A stretch of DNA of 55,008 nucleotides from a virus (IMGVR_UViG_3300045988_134234:1-55008); one strand, 5' to 3'; shown: positions 4,164 to 45,462, counted from the first letter of the stretch. Program-made: numbers and translations. Notes: generated by a model from the sequence alone, not told the origin.

Positions 4164-4378
4164 CAGTGCACCTCCACGCAGTTCATTGGCAGATTCCAGT
4201 AATTGAGGATCTCCATCGCATCAAGAGTGAAGCGAGCAGCAAAAATGCAGGGTTCTTCGGGAAGGTATGAGCGCGCCTCTGCTTCGGTAGCAGCCATTAC
4301 GCAGATATAAAGGTGTTTTTGGCAGGAATAGAAACGCCAGATAAATTCAGAATGAGTTGGGGTAGGGATAGTAGCCAT
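4163..4378 (-). CDS. small protein upstream of Rha-like gene (Icd/Ash-like position)
   Basis: 71 aa, AAGGAGG RBS, start overlaps stop of downstream gene; paralog at 44910..45134 shares EFIWRF...AATE.EARS motif. Confidence 0.5.
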   Translation of the reverse strand: MATIPTPTHSEFIWRFYSCQKHLYICVMAATEAEARSYLPEEPCIFAARFTLDAMEILNYWNLPMNCVEVH

Positions 4379-4379
4379 A

Positions 4380-4640
4380 TTGGCAGCCTCCTTTGACTAA
4401 GTTAAGGAGCTACCGCGTGAGGTTCCAATCTCAATGGCGGTAGCACTGACTGGGTTGGAACTACCGGCGTCAAAGGGAACCGGCCTGCCTTTCGGCAGCC
4501 CAGCCAGCACTACCATTGATCTCTGAGCTAAACGCTACGTATGGCTGTGCGATGGCGTGACACAAAAAAAGACGCTTTCGGCGTCTGTGTCGCCTTTGAC
4601 ATTATCCGGGGTTCCAATCCCGGCACCCGTTTTTCTAAGG
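4380..4640 (-). ncRNA. structured leader / candidate antisense-regulatory RNA (C4-like hypothesis)
   Basis: About 260 nt untranslated leader with repeated GATTGGAACC elements and a complementary GTTCCAACC element, multiple hairpins, and an anti-SD hairpin (CTCCTT...AAGGAG) sequestering the RBS of the 71-aa gene. Confidence 0.25.
4562..4586 (-). terminator. rho-independent terminator (minus strand)
   Basis: GACGC-cgaaa-GCGTC hairpin followed by T7 on minus strand. Confidence 0.55.
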
Positions 4641-4690
4641 TGCCGTAGAAATATACCTCACGATAATGCCAGGGCGCAACAGTCAGTATT

Positions 4691-19068: not shown

Positions 19069-19448
19069 TGAGGCATATATCACCGGAAGAACTTATTTCG
19101 CTTCATGATGCGAATATAAACCGCTACGGCGGCCTGCCGGGAATGTCAGATCCGGGTAGGGCTGAGGCCATTATCGGGAGAGTTCAGGCCAGAGTTGCCT
19201 ACGAAGAGATCACCGACCTTTTCGAAGTCTCCGCCACCTACCTGGTGGCTACAGCGAGAGGGCATATATTCAATGATGCCAATAAGCGTACCGCGCTAAA
19301 CAGTGCGCTGCTATTTCTACGCCGTAACGGTATACAGGTATATGATTCTCCCGTGCTGGTGGAACTTGCGGTGGGGGCTGCAACTGGTGAAATCCCCGTA
19401 TCTTCAGTAGCGGAAAAACTACGTGAACTATATGGTTCCAATATTTGA
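19068..19448 (+). CDS. doc: Doc toxin (Fic-fold)
   Basis: Fic-type [11 protein letters not shown] motif; 126 aa; translationally coupled to phd. Confidence 0.9.
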
Positions 19449-29331: not shown

Positions 29332-29715
29332 CTACCAGCGGGATAAACGAACAACATGCTTAACTTTTGCCTCCCACTTCCCTTTATGTTTGTTGATCAC
29401 CGCCTGGGCCATCTTCAGACTGGCTTCAAAATCGGCTTTTCGACCACTATTACCCACCAGCAACGCTCCGTCTATTTCAGGTAAGCATAAGTAATCCTGC
29501 TCGACGGTAAGCGGCATTGATGATGTAACCTGGCAGGCTTTCCATCTGAAGCGTATGCGCACACTCCTGACTGACATCACGACATAACCTGATATTGTGC
29601 TCTTGTGTCCGGCGTCTGTGCGTGTAGCCTTGCATGATGTTATCTTGCAGGTGATGATGTCCCAACCAATGTGCATCGCATCCTCAATGCGTAATTTAGT
29701 AGCCTCGTACATCAA
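29332..29715 (-). CDS. hypothetical protein (127 aa)
   Basis: ORF; overlaps next gene. Confidence 0.4.
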   Translation of the reverse strand: MMYEATKLRIEDAMHIGWDIITCKITSCKATRTDAGHKSTISGYVVMSVRSVRIRFRWKACQVTSSMPLTVEQDYLCLPEIDGALLVGNSGRKADFEASLKMAQAVINKHKGKWEAKVKHVVRLSRW

Positions 29716-30287
29716 AAAACCTCCCAGTCAGTAGCGATAATATCAACACCAGTTGCAAACCAGTCTGTCTGCGCCTGTAAATCCCCATTCATCATTACCA
29801 GGCGAGGCATAACCATCACATCACAACCTTCAACAATATCGAATGCCTCTTCCGGCAGGAATTCGACGAGCTTTTCTTTGCTACCAACACTGCCACGGAG
29901 CATCGATATATAGCTCCCTTTAGGCCATGATGTTCGCCGGGCATCAAGCCCCTTCATCATCCAGTAAAAGGCCGATGAGAACGGGATGTTCTTTTTGGCG
30001 ATGAGCACGTTATTCGCTTCTGTGTACTTCAGGAACTTAACTAACCTTACCATCGACTCGGATAACGCAATGTACGGCTCATGATTGATTGCTGACACAC
30101 TTACGCCGTGCAGTCCAACACTTACCACTGTCATATCACCGTTCTGTGCGGTTTCGATGTTGACGCCTTTACGAACTAACGCTGCATAAAGCTCCTCGCG
30201 CTTTTGCGTCCAGCATTCTCGTCGCCCTATAAAGTCACTCAAAACGAGATCATCTTCTGAATACGCGTTATCGTTCGCCGTTAACAT
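29712..30287 (-). CDS. hypothetical protein (191 aa)
   Basis: ORF downstream of tRNA island. Confidence 0.45.
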   Translation of the reverse strand: MLTANDNAYSEDDLVLSDFIGRRECWTQKREELYAALVRKGVNIETAQNGDMTVVSVGLHGVSVSAINHEPYIALSESMVRLVKFLKYTEANNVLIAKKNIPFSSAFYWMMKGLDARRTSWPKGSYISMLRGSVGSKEKLVEFLPEEAFDIVEGCDVMVMPRLVMMNGDLQAQTDWFATGVDIIATDWEVF

Positions 30288-30507
30288 AACGTCTCCTTTT
30301 TTACACGCGCGACTATCCCCCGGCTGAACCGGTAGTGACGTCGTAACTTCGTATTAATTAAGGGTTACAGCCTGAGCGGCTATATGATGAATTGAAAGGA
30401 GTTGTGGCGGTGGTGCCTCCACCTGCCAGGTTAGCCACGCCCGGCGACGACACTTATCAGAACGTAGTGAATGAAAATGGCTTCGTCACGAGCGCATAGC
30501 CGCAATT

Positions 30508-30556
30508 ACCACAACGGAGAAGGCGCTCGTATTAATTAAACACCTTTTCCTGTTGT
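30508..30556. repeat. long-hairpin family unit A
   Basis: ACCACAACGGAGAAGG...CCTTTTCCTGTTGT inverted arms. Confidence 0.45.
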
Positions 30557-30741
30557 ACGCCGTGCTATTCCGGCTGTCACACCGAATCGCCAGGATGGTG
30601 AGTCCCTGAGTCCGCTATCCTACCAACGGTGACTTGCACATTCCGGCTACCTGATGTGCCCATGCAGTGTTAGTAAGGCACCTAACAGCTACACCAGACC
30701 GCTAACGACGCATGTGCCATACGCCGTGTTACAACCAAATG

Positions 30742-30817
30742 TGGTGGCCCCTACCGGACTTGAACCGGTGACCGTGCGATTATGAGTCGCCCGCTCTAAC
30801 CACTGAGCTAAGGGGCC
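30742..30817 (-). tRNA. tRNA anticodon CAU (Met or Ile2 via lysidine)
   Basis: RC reads GGCCCCTTAGCTCAGTGGTTAGAGC...CTCATAA...GGTTCAAGTCC...GGGGCCACCA; resembles recalled E. coli ileX/ileY-type tRNA. Confidence 0.8.
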
Positions 30818-30826
30818 AGATTACTG

Positions 30827-30955
30827 TTAATTACGCTTACGCTTTTTGCCAGAACCGCGTAAGGCTTTTGCCGCTTGCTCTACCCCGTATGCAACCACCA
30901 GCAGAAACAATAATGTCCACTCCGGGTTTTTATCGGCAAACGCCCAAAAATCCAT
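30827..30955 (-). CDS. possible small membrane peptide (~42 aa)
   Basis: MDFWAFADKNPEWTLLFLLVVAYG...; AGGTGG RBS-like upstream; approximate coordinates. Confidence 0.3.
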   Translation of the reverse strand: MDFWAFADKNPEWTLLFLLVVAYGVEQAAKALRGSGKKRKRN

Positions 30956-31133
30956 CACTTGCAGCCACCTTTTAAGACAAAACGCCATTGCTGTTAGGTT
31001 GCGGTGCCGGGTGCCTCCCGGTGACGTTAACCAGTTAACAATTAACGCCGGATCACTTATGGATTCTCGTTACGCCAGTAAAAAGACCACCTTTACTGTT
31101 TTAACTGTTCCGCGTGCGCTTAGCCGCATTCAC

Positions 31134-31246
31134 CGCAATGGTAAGAGCATTTGGCTGACTGGGCGGCGATGACGCCTGTACGCATTTGGTGATCCGGTTC
31201 TGCTTCCGGCATTCGCTTAATTAGCCAAATACTCTTAACGTTGCGA
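31134..31246. repeat. long-hairpin family unit B (abuts 3' end of tRNA-Ser)
   Basis: CGCAATGGTAAGAGCATTT ... AAATACTCTTAACGTTGCG. Confidence 0.45.
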
Positions 31247-31333
31247 TGGCGGAGAGTAATGGAATCGAACCATCATCGCTTGCGCGACGGGACGGTTTTC
31301 AAGACCGCTTGAGCACCATGCTCCCTACTCTCC
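31247..31333 (-). tRNA. tRNA-Ser (anticodon UGA), class II with long variable arm
   Basis: RC reads GGAGAGT...GCGGTCTTGAAAACCGT (anticodon TGA)...long variable arm...GGTTCGATTCC...ACTCTCCGCCA. Confidence 0.65.
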
Positions 31334-31483
31334 AGTGATTGTGGTGGTCGGTACTGATCTCCGACTGCGCCTCTTTTTTTCATAGCGCATAAGGCCGGTC
31401 AGTGCGCTTGATGACTGAGGCATCGATATTTACTACGCCGCCTCGTTGCCATAGGGCGGACTTGCGCGCCAGCAACGCGCATT

Positions 31484-31573
31484 CACCACAACGGAAAGAG
31501 CATTTATGGCTCGCATCGCGGGAAAAAGCCCACGGTAGAGAGTCGAACTCTACAAATGCTCTTACCTGTTGTG
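31484..31573. repeat. long-hairpin family unit C with internal T-loop-like hairpin
   Basis: CACCACAACGGAAAGAGCATTT ... AAATGCTCTTACCTGTTGTG; internal GTAGAG-TTCGACT-CTCTAC on minus strand. Confidence 0.45.
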
Positions 31574-31698
31574 TTGTGATGACCGGTGCTGATCTCCGGC
31601 TTGCGGTAATTTCAGACTCTCACGGGCGTTTAATTGCCCCGCCGAACAGCTCTTTTCCGCAATAGCTGCAATGTCTTTCGCGCATCAGCCTGCGCATT

Positions 31699-31788
31699 CA
31701 TCACAACGGTAAGGGTACTTCGTAGGGATTCGAACCCTCTGCCAAGCTCGGCGATCTCCGACGTCGCAAAATACCCTTACCTGTTGTG
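31699..31788. repeat. long-hairpin family unit D with internal T-arm-like GGGTTCGAATCCC (abuts tRNA-Thr)
   Basis: CATCACAACGGTAAGGGTA ... TACCCTTACCTGTTGTG; tRNA-like but lacks D-arm and CCA. Confidence 0.45.
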
Positions 31789-31789
31789 C

Positions 31790-31865
31790 TGGTGCCGATT
31801 AACGGACTCGAACCGCTGACATCCTGCTTACAAGGCAGGCGCTCTACCAACTGAGCTAAACCGGC
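31790..31865 (-). tRNA. tRNA-Thr (anticodon UGU)
   Basis: RC reads GCCGGTTTAGCTCAGTTGGTAGAGC GCCTGCCTTGTAAGCAGG...GGTTCGAGTCC...AATCGGCACCA. Confidence 0.8.
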
Positions 31866-31867
31866 AT

Positions 31868-31943
31868 TGGCGATGGTGGATGGATTTGAACCATCGACCC
31901 GTTGATTAACAGTCAACCGCTCTAACCGCTGAGCTACACCATC
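31868..31943 (-). tRNA. tRNA-Asn (anticodon GUU)
   Basis: RC reads GATGGTGTAGCTCAGCGGTTAGAGC GGTTGACTGTTAATCAACG...GGTTCAAATCC...CACCATCGCCA. Confidence 0.8.
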
Positions 31944-32131
31944 ACTTGCCGGGTACGTCTCCGGCGAGGGCTTCCACCTCCGTATGCTTTTCGGCGCACC
32001 GCGCCCTGGCTGCAATTCGGTAACAGGGGATGCATAACCCTGGCTTCTAGCGTGATTAGCGCCTTCAGCATGACGGGATATACCCGTTACAAGACATTAT
32101 TCCAGAAAGCCATTAACCAATGGCTGTTACG

Positions 32132-32225
32132 CGGGAAGGACGTAACAGGTAAGGGCGCTGACCAGAAAGACCTGACCCTTCTCATTCATCTGGTTAATCA
32201 CACCAGCGCCCTTGCCTGTTATGCC
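32132..32225. repeat. long-hairpin family unit E
   Basis: CGTAACAGGTAAGGGCGCTG ... CAGCGCCCTTGCCTGTTATG. Confidence 0.4.
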
Positions 32226-32841
32226 TCCCCGTTCCCTAATACACAGACGGGGACACTCTGCGGTCGATTTTTTGACGGGGGACGACTCATACCCCGTGGC
32301 GTCTGGCTTCTTAGGCCGCTACCATCATCAGATCATCGTTTGCATTTACTTTAATGGTCGGATTCTAAACCGCCGCAAAGTCGCTAACCATGACGAAAAC
32401 CCTGAAAAAACACCCACCCGAAGGTGGGCAAATATCCCACTCACGGTATTGCCACTTAGGCGTATGGTCAGCCTGGCAAATCGGCGTCATAAGGGGGAAG
32501 GAGTCACTGCCCCGCCATACTTGCCGCCGCGCCTGTCGCGGTTATCGCTACGTATCAACATAAAAGCCGACTGCCTGAGCAAGATTCACTTTCAAAGGCC
32601 CGCAGAAAGGAATCCATAGTCGGCTTTTATCTTGAAGCGGCTCTCTCTCCGCCCGTCACCGTCCTATCCCGGTTGTCGCGTTTGCCACGCCAGCCGTAAC
32701 GAGGTTTAAAGTCTTTTCACGTTTTCATCACTCGACTGCCGTCTATGGCTGTTCGTTGCAGCGGGGGTGCCTCCCCCTGGGGATATCCCCGGCCTTACCC
32801 CCATTCTTTCAAAACACAATGCAAGGCCACATCCGCATAGG

Positions 32842-32930
32842 TGCATTACCGCAACGTTAAGGAGACTCAGAGTCAGCAAAATAAGAGGAAAACCCAACTC
32901 TGCGCCTCCTTAACGTTGAGGATGTGCACT
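32842..32930. repeat. long-hairpin unit F (about 22-bp stem)
   Basis: GTGCATTACCGCAACGTTAAGGAG ... CTCCTTAACGTTGAGGATGTGCAC. Confidence 0.4.
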
Positions 32931-33139
32931 GATGATGACCCGATGCAGCCTGGCCCACTTAACATACTCACTGCCAGATCATCATCAATGAACACCTTAA
33001 AAAGACCTTCCGTGGCTCAAGTCACTGTCGTTTACTCCGTAAAATGCTCTCGCTGAAACCACTTTACGCACTAAACCTGCCGGGCATGTATTTGCACGGT
33101 GCCGGAGCTTTCCCTTACCTTAAAATTTACTTTCTAACA

Positions 33140-33150
33140 CTTAAATTTGT
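33140..33150. promoter_or_regulatory. operator-like motif (ACTTTCTAACA)
   Basis: Single arm near the head of the non-coding island. Confidence 0.35.
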
Positions 33151-33259
33151 TTTATGCTGGTGGGGAAAGACAATGAAGTGACTATCAAACCCGCAAGCGA
33201 CATGGGAAGCTCCCCACCAGCACGAAAAATTCTATGTTAAGTTAACCTCATAATCAATA

Positions 33260-33289
33260 TGTTAGAAAGACAATTCTAATTTTCTAACA
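33260..33289. promoter_or_regulatory. operator-like inverted pair TGTTAGAAA-N12-TTTCTAACA
   Basis: Perfect 9-bp arms; downstream of the 402-aa gene, at the head of the non-coding tRNA island. Confidence 0.5.
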
Positions 33290-33291
33290 CA

Positions 33292-34500
33292 TTATTTCCC
33301 GTAAAGATTTTCAACTCCACCGTTCTTCTTATCCCACTCGTTCGCCCATACCCGGCAAGCATCAATTATTTCCTGACGGCGATCGCCCTGCATGAACGGA
33401 ATGCTTTCATGAAAGCTGCTTGGAATGCAGGCCACACTGAACACTGTATCAAACTCAGTCTGCTTGATTGCCTCCAACGTCTCTGGACGCATTTTCAATT
33501 CGTCGATCGGTGCATCCTTAGAGTCCATAATCCGGCGATGCAAGCGTGGAAAATCCGTTTCAAGGTACGCCATAATTTTATCTGCCAGACATTCGTCTAT
33601 GTCGGTATTCCAGTCAGTTTCGAAGCCAGGAATTCGGTAGTAAAGCGGCGTTCCCCATACTGACGGGATCACATCCATCGTCAGCAGGCGGCTGGTTCTG
33701 ATTTGCTGATGGTAATTTGCCGTCAGCAACGCTTCGCCACGTTGCCCAGTCTCCGCGACCAGACCATGCGGAAACTCATGGATATAGGCAATAGCTTCTC
33801 TTCCGTCATACATTAGCGGGAATGTCTCTGGCCTTTGCCCCATGCCACAGGCGCGATTCAGATCATGACCAAGCTCTGAACACTCTCGTTTCAATGTTTC
33901 AATAATGCTCTGCGCCGCTGCTAACTTTTTACGCAGTGTGACGAGTTCGCCTTGATACTCAACGCATTGCTGATTTAGCTTGGTTAAACGCTCTTTTAGT
34001 TCGCGACGCTCTCTTTTCAGCGTGCGGTTATCTTTCTCCGCAACATCCAGTCGTTTTGTCAGGCTTGGCGGATAGTCTTTTTTGTAACGACTCAAATCGA
34101 CTTCAGCAGATTTGCGCAGTGTATTTGCCTGCTCAAGACGCGCCTCCAGATTGCCGATCTCATTACGCATATTCGCGGCAAATTGATTAACTGCATCCCC
34201 CAGGCTTTCAACTGTCGCTGATACACCAGTGACTTGAGAAAAACGGATCAAGCCATCATTAACGGCTTGCTGATATTCCTCAAACTGATCCACCAGCTTA
34301 TTGTAATCAACTGCCCCATCATCAAGGAGCTGGTTGATTTCCGCCACCAGGTTATCTGTAGTGGCAATGACGCTCTCATGCAGTCGCTTTGACAGGTCAT
34401 CGCCCGGATTTCGTTTCTGTATAAGCGCGATTTGTGTCCGCAGTGTTTCAATTGCGGTTGAGATGATCTCCAGGCTTGATGATTCTACTTGCTGACTCAT
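33292..34500 (-). CDS. hypothetical protein (402 aa), coiled-coil N-terminal half
   Basis: Monocistronic unit bracketed by operator motifs and an upstream terminator. Confidence 0.55.
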   Translation of the reverse strand: MSQQVESSSLEIISTAIETLRTQIALIQKRNPGDDLSKRLHESVIATTDNLVAEINQLLDDGAVDYNKLVDQFEEYQQAVNDGLIRFSQVTGVSATVESLGDAVNQFAANMRNEIGNLEARLEQANTLRKSAEVDLSRYKKDYPPSLTKRLDVAEKDNRTLKRERRELKERLTKLNQQCVEYQGELVTLRKKLAAAQSIIETLKRECSELGHDLNRACGMGQRPETFPLMYDGREAIAYIHEFPHGLVAETGQRGEALLTANYHQQIRTSRLLTMDVIPSVWGTPLYYRIPGFETDWNTDIDECLADKIMAYLETDFPRLHRRIMDSKDAPIDELKMRPETLEAIKQTEFDTVFSVACIPSSFHESIPFMQGDRRQEIIDACRVWANEWDKKNGGVENLYGK

Positions 34501-44218: not shown

Positions 44219-44910
44219 CCGATTACCTGGAATTGCCCCATCCTTGGGTGATACCAGCGTTTTCCTCGGTGTTCAGCCTCCGACATCATCAGGGTAAAGG
44301 CATTCATGAAGGGAGATAAGGCCACAATAGTACGACGCGACAATACCCCCTCTGGCGTCAAAAACTCATGCGTATCTGTGGGGATCCGGTAAGCGTTGAC
44401 CAGGTTGCGGCATTTGGCTTCAGTCAGGCCGCATTTCGCCGCCAACTGGCGATAGCCAATGTAGCCTTCTGGTATGTTGCCTTTCTTGATCTGCTCGACG
44501 GTTTCAGCGACCTGGCTAACCTTTGACTCAACAGCATGAAGCCGCTTTTGCTGCTGAACTGCATTCGCAGCCATTGCAGCGATCATCTCTATTTCGGTCA
44601 ACGGCTGGCGTACTTGTTCTTCCAGTTCGCGCCAGCGGTCCACCAGCCGGGCGGTGAATTCGGGAGAGAGCTGCGCGACGACGATAATGCTATCGCGCTT
44701 GCCTTGCTCGCCTTCGAAGACGTAAGCCTCAACACTACGTCGTAGTCCTAAGTTATTGATTTTTTCGAAAACCTCAATTTGAGGACGAACAATAACGCCA
44801 CCTTTGGCTAATGTCTCAATAGTGCGTTTCACATTGTCATGACGTTTTCCCACCAGCTCCGCGATCTCAATGCTGGTCATTGATGGCTTTTCGAGAATGC
44901 AGATATCCAT
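44203..44910 (-). CDS. Rha-family regulatory/antirepressor-like protein (paralog of 3237..4163)
   Basis: IEIAELVGKRHDNVKRTIETL; long stretches identical to the first module. Confidence 0.6.
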   Translation of the reverse strand: MDICILEKPSMTSIEIAELVGKRHDNVKRTIETLAKGGVIVRPQIEVFEKINNLGLRRSVEAYVFEGEQGKRDSIIVVAQLSPEFTARLVDRWRELEEQVRQPLTEIEMIAAMAANAVQQQKRLHAVESKVSQVAETVEQIKKGNIPEGYIGYRQLAAKCGLTEAKCRNLVNAYRIPTDTHEFLTPEGVLSRRTIVALSPFMNAFTLMMSEAEHRGKRWYHPRMGQFQVIGWGGE

Positions 44911-45134
44911 CAGTGAGCCTCCGCAATGCCGGGATTGGTAATATTGCGATACCAGGGATTGGTGTTTGGTTGTGGGGAAGTAGAGAAACGACCAGTGAGA
45001 ACGCCATACTGATCAGGGATCAGAGAACGGGCTTCTTTTTCAGTTGCGGCAATTGCGAAGTGATCGCAGTGTTTTTGCAGGGAGTGAAAACGCCAGATGA
45101 ATTCTGGACGTGAGCAAGGATTGGCATTAACCAT
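44910..45134 (-). CDS. small protein (paralog of 4163..4378)
   Basis: EFIWRFHSLQKH...AIAATEKEARS. Confidence 0.5.
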   Translation of the reverse strand: MVNANPCSRPEFIWRFHSLQKHCDHFAIAATEKEARSLIPDQYGVLTGRFSTSPQPNTNPWYRNITNPGIAEAH

Positions 45135-45159: not shown

Positions 45160-45360
45160 CAACCTGCGACCCGCTGTCAAACAGGTGGCAGGACGTGACA
45201 GGGTTGACAGACTGGCACTTACGAAACCAGCAGGCCGAAGCCTCCCCATCACGCCCCACCATAATTCGGGCGTAACGTGGTTTTACGGACACAAAAATAC
45301 CGCAATATCGGAAATGTGCGGTTGTCCGCGTAAGTATTCAGGCTGTCAAACCTGGTCGCA
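45160..45360. repeat. TGTCAAAC / GTTGACAG short repeats in leader region
   Basis: CGCTGTCAAACAGG, GGGTTGACAGACTGG, GGCTGTCAAACCTGG: two direct copies plus one complementary copy. Confidence 0.4.
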
Positions 45361-45462
45361 GAATTTGCTACGACGGCATGAATATAAGCCTGAACATTAG
45401 AAAGATCAACAGAATTTTTATCAAATGCTGTTTTTTAGTGACAATGTAAATCATACATTCTT

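Follow-up and report, generated by a model that had tools for sequence, protein, structure and literature searches.

The subject of this analysis is an almost gene-free island at positions 30290–33290 of a stretch of viral DNA of 55,008 nucleotides (nt) (IMGVR_UViG_3300045988_134234:1-55008; the whole stretch is called the window), which belongs to a P1/D6-like phage-plasmid. The island holds four transfer RNA (tRNA) genes and at least seven long hairpins, which are members of one family and all lie on the tRNA strand. We propose, with a probability of about 55%, that these hairpins are stalks at which ribonuclease III (RNase III) would cut a repressor-controlled polycistronic RNA into tRNAs and small RNAs (sRNAs). 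A further module, at 32213–32404 on the minus strand, has a 5′ arm complementary to the transfer-messenger RNA (tmRNA) of the host and stands further from anything described than the hairpin family does. A sequence-only reading of the same DNA had noticed the tRNAs and six of the hairpins; its account omitted the helices that close the modules between the stalks, the tmRNA-directed module, a terminator and a small open reading frame (ORF).

The hairpin family and its probable action as RNA

The canonical unit, read on the minus strand, consists of CACAAC-A-GGUAAGAGCAUUG, a cargo, and CAGUGCUCUUUCC-GUUGUG. The stalk so formed has 19 pairs; a conserved bulged A and a U·U mismatch interrupt it, and it contains a U·G pair. 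It is the constant part of the unit, its stem being either conserved or compensated, and the cargo is freely variable. Most units have a tail, GUGAAUGCGCA-GGCUGA-UGCGC, a small hairpin with a covarying stem under a constant loop. The six long inverted repeats reported from the sequence alone all exist: an independent search recovered the inverted repeats of the island, and as RNA the six fold with z scores of −4.2 to −8.9, which none of 200 shuffles equaled. A seventh hairpin was added at 32555–32635. The 3′-arm motif CYCTTNCCGTTGYG occurs 13 times in the window with up to two mismatches, against 4.1 ± 2.1 expected, and with up to one mismatch every match in the window falls inside the island.

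All stalks of the window are on the minus strand. Stalk A (32836–32934; CAACGUUAAGGAGG / CUCCUUAACGUUG) is diverged and has the z score of −8.9. The seventh hairpin, stalk A2 (32555–32635), is an inverted repeat with the arms CAAGAUAAAAGCCGACU / AGUCGGCUUUUAUGUUGA. Stalk B (32143–32221; UAACAGGCAAGGGCGCUG / CAGCGCCCUUACCUGUUA), found both as an inverted repeat and by folding, is followed by a minimal closing helix, CUGUUACG/CGUAACAG, reaching to about 32117. Stalks C (31701–31788) and D (31486–31578) are canonical. The cargo of C is a mimic of a tRNA T-arm, AGGG-UUCGAAU-CCCU, with a GAGAUC remnant, and in that of D the mimic GUAGAG-UUCGACU-CUCUAC stands directly 5′ of the hairpin CGUGGG-CUUUUU-CCCGCG. 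Stalk E (31131–31249), diverged and again recovered by folding and as an inverted repeat, encloses a 64-nt cargo (31159–31222) that is 98% identical to lambda 44866–44929 and ∼90% identical to an element after tRNA-Ser(UGA) in rV5-like phages. Stalk F (30506–30560) is minimal, with almost no cargo (46 bits, E 2.6e-10 with a stalk covariance model). Two units do abut tRNA 3′ ends, as had been claimed: C begins 1 nt past the CCA end of tRNA-Thr, and the stem of E overlaps the CCA of tRNA-Ser. The T-loop-like hairpins reported in C and D (GGGTTCGAATCCC and GAGTTCGACTCTC) are likewise present, as a T-arm alone; neither unit was called a tRNA by ARAGORN (default or -ps85) or by the Rfam tRNA model at E ≤ 10, and the worry that they are ordinary, misfolded tRNAs was not borne out. 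The stalk covariance model, built from cargo-trimmed seeds (R1), was dropped as a means of counting members: it finds the cargo-less unit F only, and units with 40–90-nt cargo score ∼8 bits. An nhmmer profile of the 3′ arm retrieves units C and D only.

Modular in construction, the family is exchanged between enterobacterial phages of very different kinds; members occur in lambda, P1, D6, rV5-like phages, Ackermannviridae and Klebsiella phages. A scan of viral contigs with the 5′ arm gave at least 120 loci; among the matches listed, the 3′ arm lay within 400 nt in 100 of 137 cases, and there were at least 64 distinct units, 42–318 nt long with unrelated loops. Lambda has one unit directly past the 6S RNA terminator tR′, followed by a 64-nt module, the counterpart of the stalk E cargo noted above. 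This lambda stalk and its closed module (L004 1121–1280; J02459 about 44787–44945) lie between tR′ and gene S, in a stretch with no annotated feature, and a near-identical unit occurs, never annotated, in 435 of 5426 complete Escherichia coli genomes. In rV5-like phages the 64-nt module comes right after tRNA-Ser(UGA), and another helix, UGUUGACC/GGUCAACA, closes it. The PL leader of mEp460 has a unit and a module 95% identical to window 31720–31572. Klebsiella phage Magnus (Ackermannviridae) has these elements too, in an island of 3 kb that lies upstream of the tRNAs. This stretch (L006 1650–4880) is annotated as ∼12 ORFs of 30–70 amino acids, which are probably spurious, since it is made of stalks, modules and a tmRNA-directed module. 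The arm and tail sequences had no match in the literature searched.

At L074 3972–4096, immediately past the 3′ arm of a stalk, begins a 125-nt tRNA match (44.5 bits) that contains a long insertion. A 209-nt unit (L022 62–107, L080) has a cargo that by eye contains all core letters of a type I hammerhead, CUGACGAG-stem II-CGAAAC-stem III-GUC; a hammerhead is no more than a lead there, with an Rfam match to Hammerhead_HH9 at 15.3 bits (E 0.77) and nothing at the gathering threshold.

The pattern of change in the stalk favors action as RNA rather than as DNA. In an alignment of 34 members, diverged window copies included, 91.6% of cells are paired and 11 of the 19 pairs show changes in both partners, where shuffles give 3.8 ± 1.1 (0/500 reach the observed value); many of the members are close relatives, and these counts hence do not represent independent events. 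Controls in which the partner was slid by 1–3 columns were at most 58% paired. Among the matches listed, the stalk pairs of 64 distinct units comprise 1064 Watson-Crick, 82 G·U and 8 A·C pairs, and among the loci listed all 67 tRNAs within 1.5 kb of a unit are on its strand. It is this strand asymmetry, together with the co-oriented tRNAs and the compensated pairing, that argues for an RNA-level element. The 19 conserved pairs plus the cargo-proximal pairs give a helix on the transcribed strand of the ∼20 base pairs (bp) expected of an RNase III stalk.

The arms might alternatively be linkers or boundaries at the DNA level, or sites of an unknown recombinase for swapping tRNA and small-RNA cassettes, and the hairpin would then be a by-product of inverted repeats flanking the cassettes, as in integron attC. 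It is true that the homology to D6, P1 and mEp460 is interrupted at stalk tails or closing-helix ends (window 31697, 31363 and 30994) and that cargo and modules have been reassorted between unrelated phages, with arms that remain ∼90%–100% identical. GCACAAC...GTTGTGC also loosely resembles the attC consensus RYYYAAC...GTTRRRY, taken here for comparison only, but misses it at one position per arm. Besides the excess of G·U over A·C and the constant co-orientation with tRNAs, this explanation has to contend with the conservation of the bulge and the U·U mismatch, with diverged copies that carry compensatory changes, and with a homologue in Qin (below) that has an RNase III-dependent end; nor is there an integrase or recombinase gene beside the units in lambda, P1, D6, Magnus or FFH2. 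We therefore consider a DNA-level role unlikely. Given the asymmetry between the strands, the constant orientation and the absence of a linked recombinase, recombination is probably a consequence and not the function; as a side effect it is to be expected at any conserved sequence. The suggestion from the sequence alone that the hairpins are recombination targets thus survives in the breaks in homology and probably fails as an account of function.

Modules and the case for RNase III processing

After a stalk there usually comes a module, which the helix GUUGUGnnn/nnnCACAAC closes. This second partner of the 3′ arm was exposed by the Rfam STnc100 alignment to window 31000–31137: GUUGYGGUGA pairs with a downstream UCACCRCAAC and encloses a module of 100–155 nt. 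The window has five such modules, three of STnc100 type and two with a CCGG-AGAUCAGCA-CCGG hairpin, and the grammar of the array is (CACAAC - stalk with cargo - GUUGUG - module - CACAAC)n. The closing helices covary (AUGA/UCAU in the window, GUGA/UCAC in mEp460, CUG/CAG in lambda), and a 10-nt closing partner with at most one mismatch was found for 21 of 100 units among the matches listed, where our estimate for chance is ∼1. Since one GUUGUG is common to the upstream and the downstream CACAAC, the stalk and the closing helix are mutually exclusive. The GUUGUG at 31701–31707, that at 31486–31492 and their equivalents can each pair with either CACAAC.

The modules are all on the minus strand. 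Three of them, M_A (32755–32855), M_E (30998–31137) and M_F (30401–30515), have the hallmarks of STnc100: a closing helix, GAAU with a small hairpin, and a 5-bp stem with an AGGCA loop. The stems under this loop are compensatory in the three copies (GGUGG/CCACC, CCGGG/CCCGG and GGGGG/CCCCC). M_A comprises GUUGCGGUAAU with the small hairpin, then GGGGG-AGGCA-CCCCC and then GCUGCAAC, and M_F contains GGUGG-AGGCA-CCACC and is closed by GUUGUGG/CCACAAC. M_E aligns with positions 31–147 of the STnc100 model (RF02076), closing helix and AGGCA-loop hairpin included, at 40.8 bits, below the gathering cut-off of 47; the same module type in Magnus exceeds it (52.9 bits). The other two modules differ in their loops. 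M_C (31573–31707) is of the GAGAUCAGCA-loop type, with GUUGUGAUGA/UCAUCACAAC as its closing helix, and shares 95% identity with the PL leader of the lambdoid phage mEp460, where GUGA/UCAC stands at the covarying positions; M_D (31338–31492; GAGAUCAGUA-loop type, closed by GUUGUGGUG/CACCACAAU) ends 4 nt short of tRNA-Ser. The motif GATCTCCGRC (GATCTCCG), said earlier to recur three times, indeed has three copies in the island. Two of these make up the loop in a conserved terminal hairpin whose stem shows a compensatory change (CCGG-AGAUCAGCA-CCGG or UCGG-..-CCGA).

Both STnc100, which is bound by Hfq, and PasD have been reported as prophage sRNAs; at least one module type therefore gives a stable RNA elsewhere, and by this resemblance the modules of the present phage may accumulate as sRNAs too. 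The window modules differ from STnc100 in that they have no STnc100 terminator, score under the cut-off and lie inside an operon instead of forming stand-alone genes.

The hairpin family had been thought not assignable to a known class. Contrary to this, the island is related to the non-coding leader of dicBF type, of which it is an expanded form; the annotators of P1 had already marked a "dicF-like region" there, and lambda has one unit of its own. In E. coli K-12, a diverged stalk, CCAUAACGCGAAAGCGCAUGG / CCGUGCGCUUCCGGUUGUGG, lies in Qin upstream of dicF. DicF occurs in 53-nt and 190-nt forms; in a preprint, the 190-nt form is described as absent in an rnc mutant and its 5′ end as an RNase III cut found by primer extension (bioRxiv 10.1101/2023.04.14.536235, citing Faubladier et al., 1990). 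On these figures, 190 nt back from the annotated dicF 3′ end is L127 19246, inside the 3′ arm of the Qin stalk (19238–19259), a position obtained by arithmetic on a gel-sized "190 nt" and accurate to ∼±10 nt. The window segment 32449–32541 (minus strand), which corresponds to the P1 "dicF-like region," is 81% identical to the Qin sequence just after the stalk, and the hairpin at 32555–32635 is thus homologous by position to the Qin stalk. M_E and the Qin dicF-dicB spacer share 78% identity, with compensatory changes. This spacer (L127 19436–19600; NC_000913.3 1649435–1649599) is itself an STnc100-type module, unannotated in K-12, with a closing helix of ∼25 bp (UUUUGUGAUGUGGUGAAU.../...CACUGCAUCACAAAA) and an Rfam STnc100 score of 34.4 bits, under the cut-off.

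Both regions are repressor-controlled early-type operons with similar segments, an STnc100-type module before the next gene and a stalk of the same design, to which in Qin the 5′ end that the DicF precursor owes to RNase III can be placed. The differences are that the DicF body (RF00039, a 52-nt model that scores 76.7 bits on Qin) has no match in the island at E ≤ 10, that the Qin stalk is a diverged member of the family, and that the window has at least seven stalks against one, with four tRNAs and the tmRNA-directed module added.

In ribosomal RNA (rRNA) operons and in T7 early RNA, RNase III stalks are long helices of flanking sequence with a bulge or mismatch, repeated on a polycistronic transcript. 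The present stalks resemble them in forming a helix around an RNA segment, in the internal bulge and mismatch and in their repetition along the transcript. They differ in that the stem sequence itself is conserved across unrelated phages, that the cargo is small (10–290 nt) and interchangeable, and that the 3′ strand is common to a second, mutually exclusive helix. The island also resembles the large non-coding phage RNAs GOLLD and ROOL, as structured, unannotated RNA beside tRNA genes of a phage; it differs from them in having no Rfam match to either and in being an array of small interchangeable units instead of one large fold.

The Qin homologue and the rRNA-like logic of a conserved helix around interchangeable cargo lead us to read the hairpins as RNase III processing stalks. 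The island would be the untranslated front part of a repressor-controlled operon, and its RNA a polycistronic array of four tRNAs, structured small RNAs (the modules) and hairpin-held cargo. Each stalk would enclose its variable cargo much as 16S and 23S rRNA are enclosed by theirs. The enzyme that cuts the stalk would most likely be the RNase III of the host, and RNase P and RNase E would finish the ends of the tRNAs and sRNAs, so that the cuts release and insulate the individual RNAs; the GUUGUG of the 3′ arm can also pair with the downstream CACAAC and close the next module. Among the suggestions made from the sequence alone, processing signals and stable small RNAs are those best matched by the strand-specific stalk, the compensated stem with its free loop, the Qin homologue and the three STnc100-like modules.

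Several points weigh against this proposal. Cutting of the canonical stalks would follow by analogy from Qin, whose stalk is a diverged homologue. RNase III sites in lambda late RNA were reportedly described in 1988 by Daniels et al., and the lambda unit is not tied to them. The stems are nearly invariant across unrelated phages, beyond what an RNase III helix needs, which points to an additional sequence-specific partner or to very recent horizontal spread. Minimum-free-energy folds favor the closing helix, by which the stalk is cut to 13 bp, short for RNase III. The double pairing of GUUGUG could mean sequential folding, a switch or neither, and RNase III cleavage leaves the competing helices unexplained. 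Finally, an intrinsic terminator at 32405–32430 on the minus strand (an 8-bp GC-rich stem, then UUUUUU) stands between the promoter and most of the array, so that read-through or a second promoter would be required.

The recurrence of T-arm hairpins in the cargos raises a different possibility, namely that these hairpins are tRNA mimics, acting as decoys or sponges for host tRNA enzymes or defense nucleases, with the stalk as a stabilizer. The setting is a tRNA island of a phage, and T-arms with the loop UUCGA(A/U/C)U recur in many cargos, on covarying stems (GUAGAG/CUCUAC, GCAGAG/CUCUGC, GAGAGG/CCUCUU and AAAGG/CCUUU); one Magnus stalk holds a D-arm-like GGAAAUUGGUAGAC besides a T-arm-like part, and the T-arm of unit D might stack with the adjoining 6-bp hairpin into a closed acceptor/T minihelix. 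The cargos with a T-arm are nevertheless a minority, none has an anticodon arm or CCA or was called a tRNA, the Rfam tRNA and Y-RNA-like (YrlA) models do not match the cargos, and mimicry would account for the cargo and not for the family, all of which makes it quite improbable. The Y-RNA-like idea itself was rejected, as the YrlA model matches the true tRNAs alone (∼25 bits, cut-off 69).

The least probable reading is that the 3′ arm loads Nus factors, as boxA does in rRNA operons and lambda nut sites, and lets RNA polymerase cross 3 kb of untranslated, Rho-prone RNA: the canonical 3′ arm, UGCUCUUU(C) or UGCUCUUA(C), equals the 8-nt core of what we take to be the boxA consensus (rrn UGCUCUUUAACAA, lambda CGCUCUUA), one unit sits in the mEp460 PL leader where nutL would be, and long untranslated RNA ahead of needed genes must escape Rho, but the core, GCUCUUU(A), which ought to be single-stranded, is buried in a stable helix, its letters decay in diverged copies (ACCCUUAC, CUCCUUAA, GCCUUCUC) as 5′-arm changes keep the pairing, seven copies in 3 kb far exceed the need for loading, and the lambda copy lies in a Q-antiterminated transcript that does not need boxA.

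A module with complementarity to host tmRNA

The module at 32213–32404 combines an antisense 5′ arm (32403–32355), a resume codon, GCA (32343–32341), a tag frame (32343–32314), a UAA stop (32313–32311), a pseudoknot and a hairpin. The lead to it came from weak matches to the Rfam permuted tmRNA model (26 bits). Window 32343–32311 reads GCA AAC GAU GAU CUG AUG AUG GUA GCG GCC UAA, or ANDDLMMVAA followed by a stop; the SsrA tag of E. coli is ANDENYALAA. The same tag frame is present in P1 and D6, and Magnus has ANDDVVLMAA. In viral contigs the tag is exactly 10 codons long in 89 of 93 distinct modules, against 1–12 codons in the other two frames. There are at least 16 different tags, all of the form AN(D/E)x...(A/V)A, among them ANEEMYLAVA, ANDEQFLAVA, ANDNTFLAVA (Vi01), ANDNVFLAVA (Felix O1-like) and ANDNAFRVAA (phage 7-11). 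The module GCA is preceded by U(−5)A(−4), the equivalents of U85 and A86, which have a known role in E. coli tmRNA. The frame and its context thus provide the parts of a tmRNA mRNA-like domain: the GCA with its U(−5)A(−4), a tag of ∼10 codons and an in-frame stop. The stop codon lies within a small hairpin. In the pseudoknot past the tag, each of the four pairs between the loop and the downstream sequence has changes on both sides, with pairing kept in 18 of 18 sequences, and the 3′ part that follows is a hairpin with a conserved loop.

The 5′ arm is antisense to nt ∼68–106 of the host ssrA RNA in three collinear blocks. The block UAGUUUUCGU(C) faces nt 96–106 (tag codons 3–6), GCGACU faces nt 86–91 and spans the resume codon, and UUUGCGGCUUUUUA faces nt 68–81. 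Scored against the reverse complement of ssrA 53–112, the arms of 89 modules gave a mean of 29.4, compared with 13.2 for shuffled arms; a control with the complement of the module's own tag region also gave 13.2. The predicted duplex has ∼−49 kcal/mol, a modest margin over the −35 to −39 of shuffles. A candidate PK1-like pseudoknot upstream of the tag was dropped, since the same letters are antisense to host ssrA. The module occurs in 728 phage records, P1, D6, Vi01-like, Felix O1-like and N4-like phages included, and is almost always unannotated. In several phages (L058, L062, L097, HY02) a promoter, TTGACA-17-TAGATT, stands directly upstream, which indicates that in those phages the RNA starts at the module.

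No tRNA-like domain (an acceptor stem with G3·U70, a T-arm and a 3′ CCA) was found by ARAGORN -m in the window or in 127 loci. Relaxed searches (-ps80, -ps70) returned 4–15 overlapping noise calls, none of which used the ANDD frame. The Rfam tmRNA models stay below their cut-offs (tmRNA_permuted 26.1 bits, cut-off 47; beta_tmRNA 11; alpha_tmRNA 24.7 on Magnus). Published phage tmRNAs are confined to mycobacteriophages and Bacillus phage G, and no paper on a phage RNA that pairs with tmRNA was found in the literature searched. With tmRNA, two-piece forms and the RNA of mycobacteriophage DS6A that consists of the tRNA-like domain only included in the comparison, the module shares the GCA with U(−5)A(−4), a 10-codon AND...AA tag, the stop codon in a small hairpin and the pseudoknot after the tag. 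It differs in having no tRNA-like domain, in the promoter directly upstream in several phages, and in the antisense 5′ arm, which no described tmRNA has.

From its pairing, the module may block tmRNA, expose it to RNase III or replace the tag template. The last of these would make it a trans-acting "tag-swap" RNA that re-programs host ribosome rescue. The 5′ arm would anneal to host tmRNA and bury its resume codon and first tag codons, the duplex would stand in for pseudoknot 1, and ∼10 unpaired nt later the module would offer its own resume codon and 10-codon tag, so that during infection ribosomes would go on being rescued, but with a tag that the phage specifies. This scheme is tentative, and we regard it as doubtful; a tamer account is that the module may simply silence tmRNA or mark it for RNase III.

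Setting of the island and implications

The nearest record to the island is Escherichia phage D6, which covers 78% of it at 90% identity; P1, P7, RCS47 and SJ46 cover 39%–47%. C4 and isrK RNAs outside the island, within the window, are consistent with a P1-type immunity system. The window has two separate C4 antisense RNA loci (4433–4643 and 45181–45387), one adjoined by isrK and the other accompanied by an a1/b1 target element, which suggests two immI-like regions in one 55-kb window. The island is flanked, both on the minus strand, by a pmgS-like gene (33292–34500) and an orf6-like gene (29712–30287). The product of the latter, the first gene past the island, has a Tad2-like (Thoeris anti-defense 2) domain (Pfam PF11195, E 4.4e-10), which places the RNA array directly upstream of a likely anti-defense gene.

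The P1 homologue of the island forms the front part of the ban operon, with the order Pban and its operator Op72, the "dicF-like region," tRNA-Asn, tRNA-Thr, plp/upl, tciABC, tRNA-Ile2 and ban. The island promoter (33229–33289, minus strand) is the positional equivalent of Pban/Op72. Here an operator palindrome (33260–33289), TGTTAGAAA-N12-TTTCTAACA, present twice in the window with 0 expected, overlaps a sigma70-like promoter (−35 TTGATT, −10 TAGAAT), and copies of the half-site GTGTTAGAAA number 19 across the window, where 3.4 are expected, in agreement with the operator motifs first noticed at the head of the island. The annotated P1 ORF plp (L003 3850–4227) overlaps the tRNA-Thr gene (4198–4273) and lies opposite the stalk that comes after tRNA-Thr; it may deserve re-examination.

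ARAGORN found exactly four tRNAs in the island, all on the minus strand and the same four as read from the sequence alone: tRNA-Asn (GUU) at 31868–31943, tRNA-Thr (UGU) at 31790–31865, tRNA-Ser (UGA) at 31247–31333 and a tRNA with anticodon CAU at 30742–30817, whose P1 counterpart is annotated as tRNA-Ile2 (ileX-like). Rfam calls three of them tRNA; tRNA-Ser matches the tRNA-Sec model of the same clan (45.7 bits, cut-off 47). A non-coding segment at 30576–30740 (minus strand) shares 73% identity with the opening part of the mEp460 PL leader. The claim that the island has no convincing ORFs holds except for a tciB-like ORF of 53 amino acids (30827–30988, minus strand), which has no Pfam match and is the sole plausible protein gene. 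A degraded protein-coding gene was rejected as an explanation of the island: its ORFs overlap tRNAs or stalks, and the four that were scanned gave no Pfam match.

DicF processing, STnc100/PasD and the P1 "dicF-like region" were known already; the grammar of stalk, cargo and module that these phages, lambda included, have in common was not in the literature searched. If the stalks are RNase III sites, tRNA and small-RNA operons of many enterobacterial phages (lambda, P1, rV5-, Vi01- and T1-like) would share one "punctuation mark." This would explain several gene-free, tRNA-linked islands, some of which are filled in the records with tiny, probably spurious ORFs, would join DicF, STnc100/PasD and the P1 ban-operon leader as one system, and would supply a rule by which phage sRNAs could be found from their frames. 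The tmRNA-directed module, unannotated even in some well-studied phages, would be the first phage RNA aimed at the trans-translation machinery of the host.

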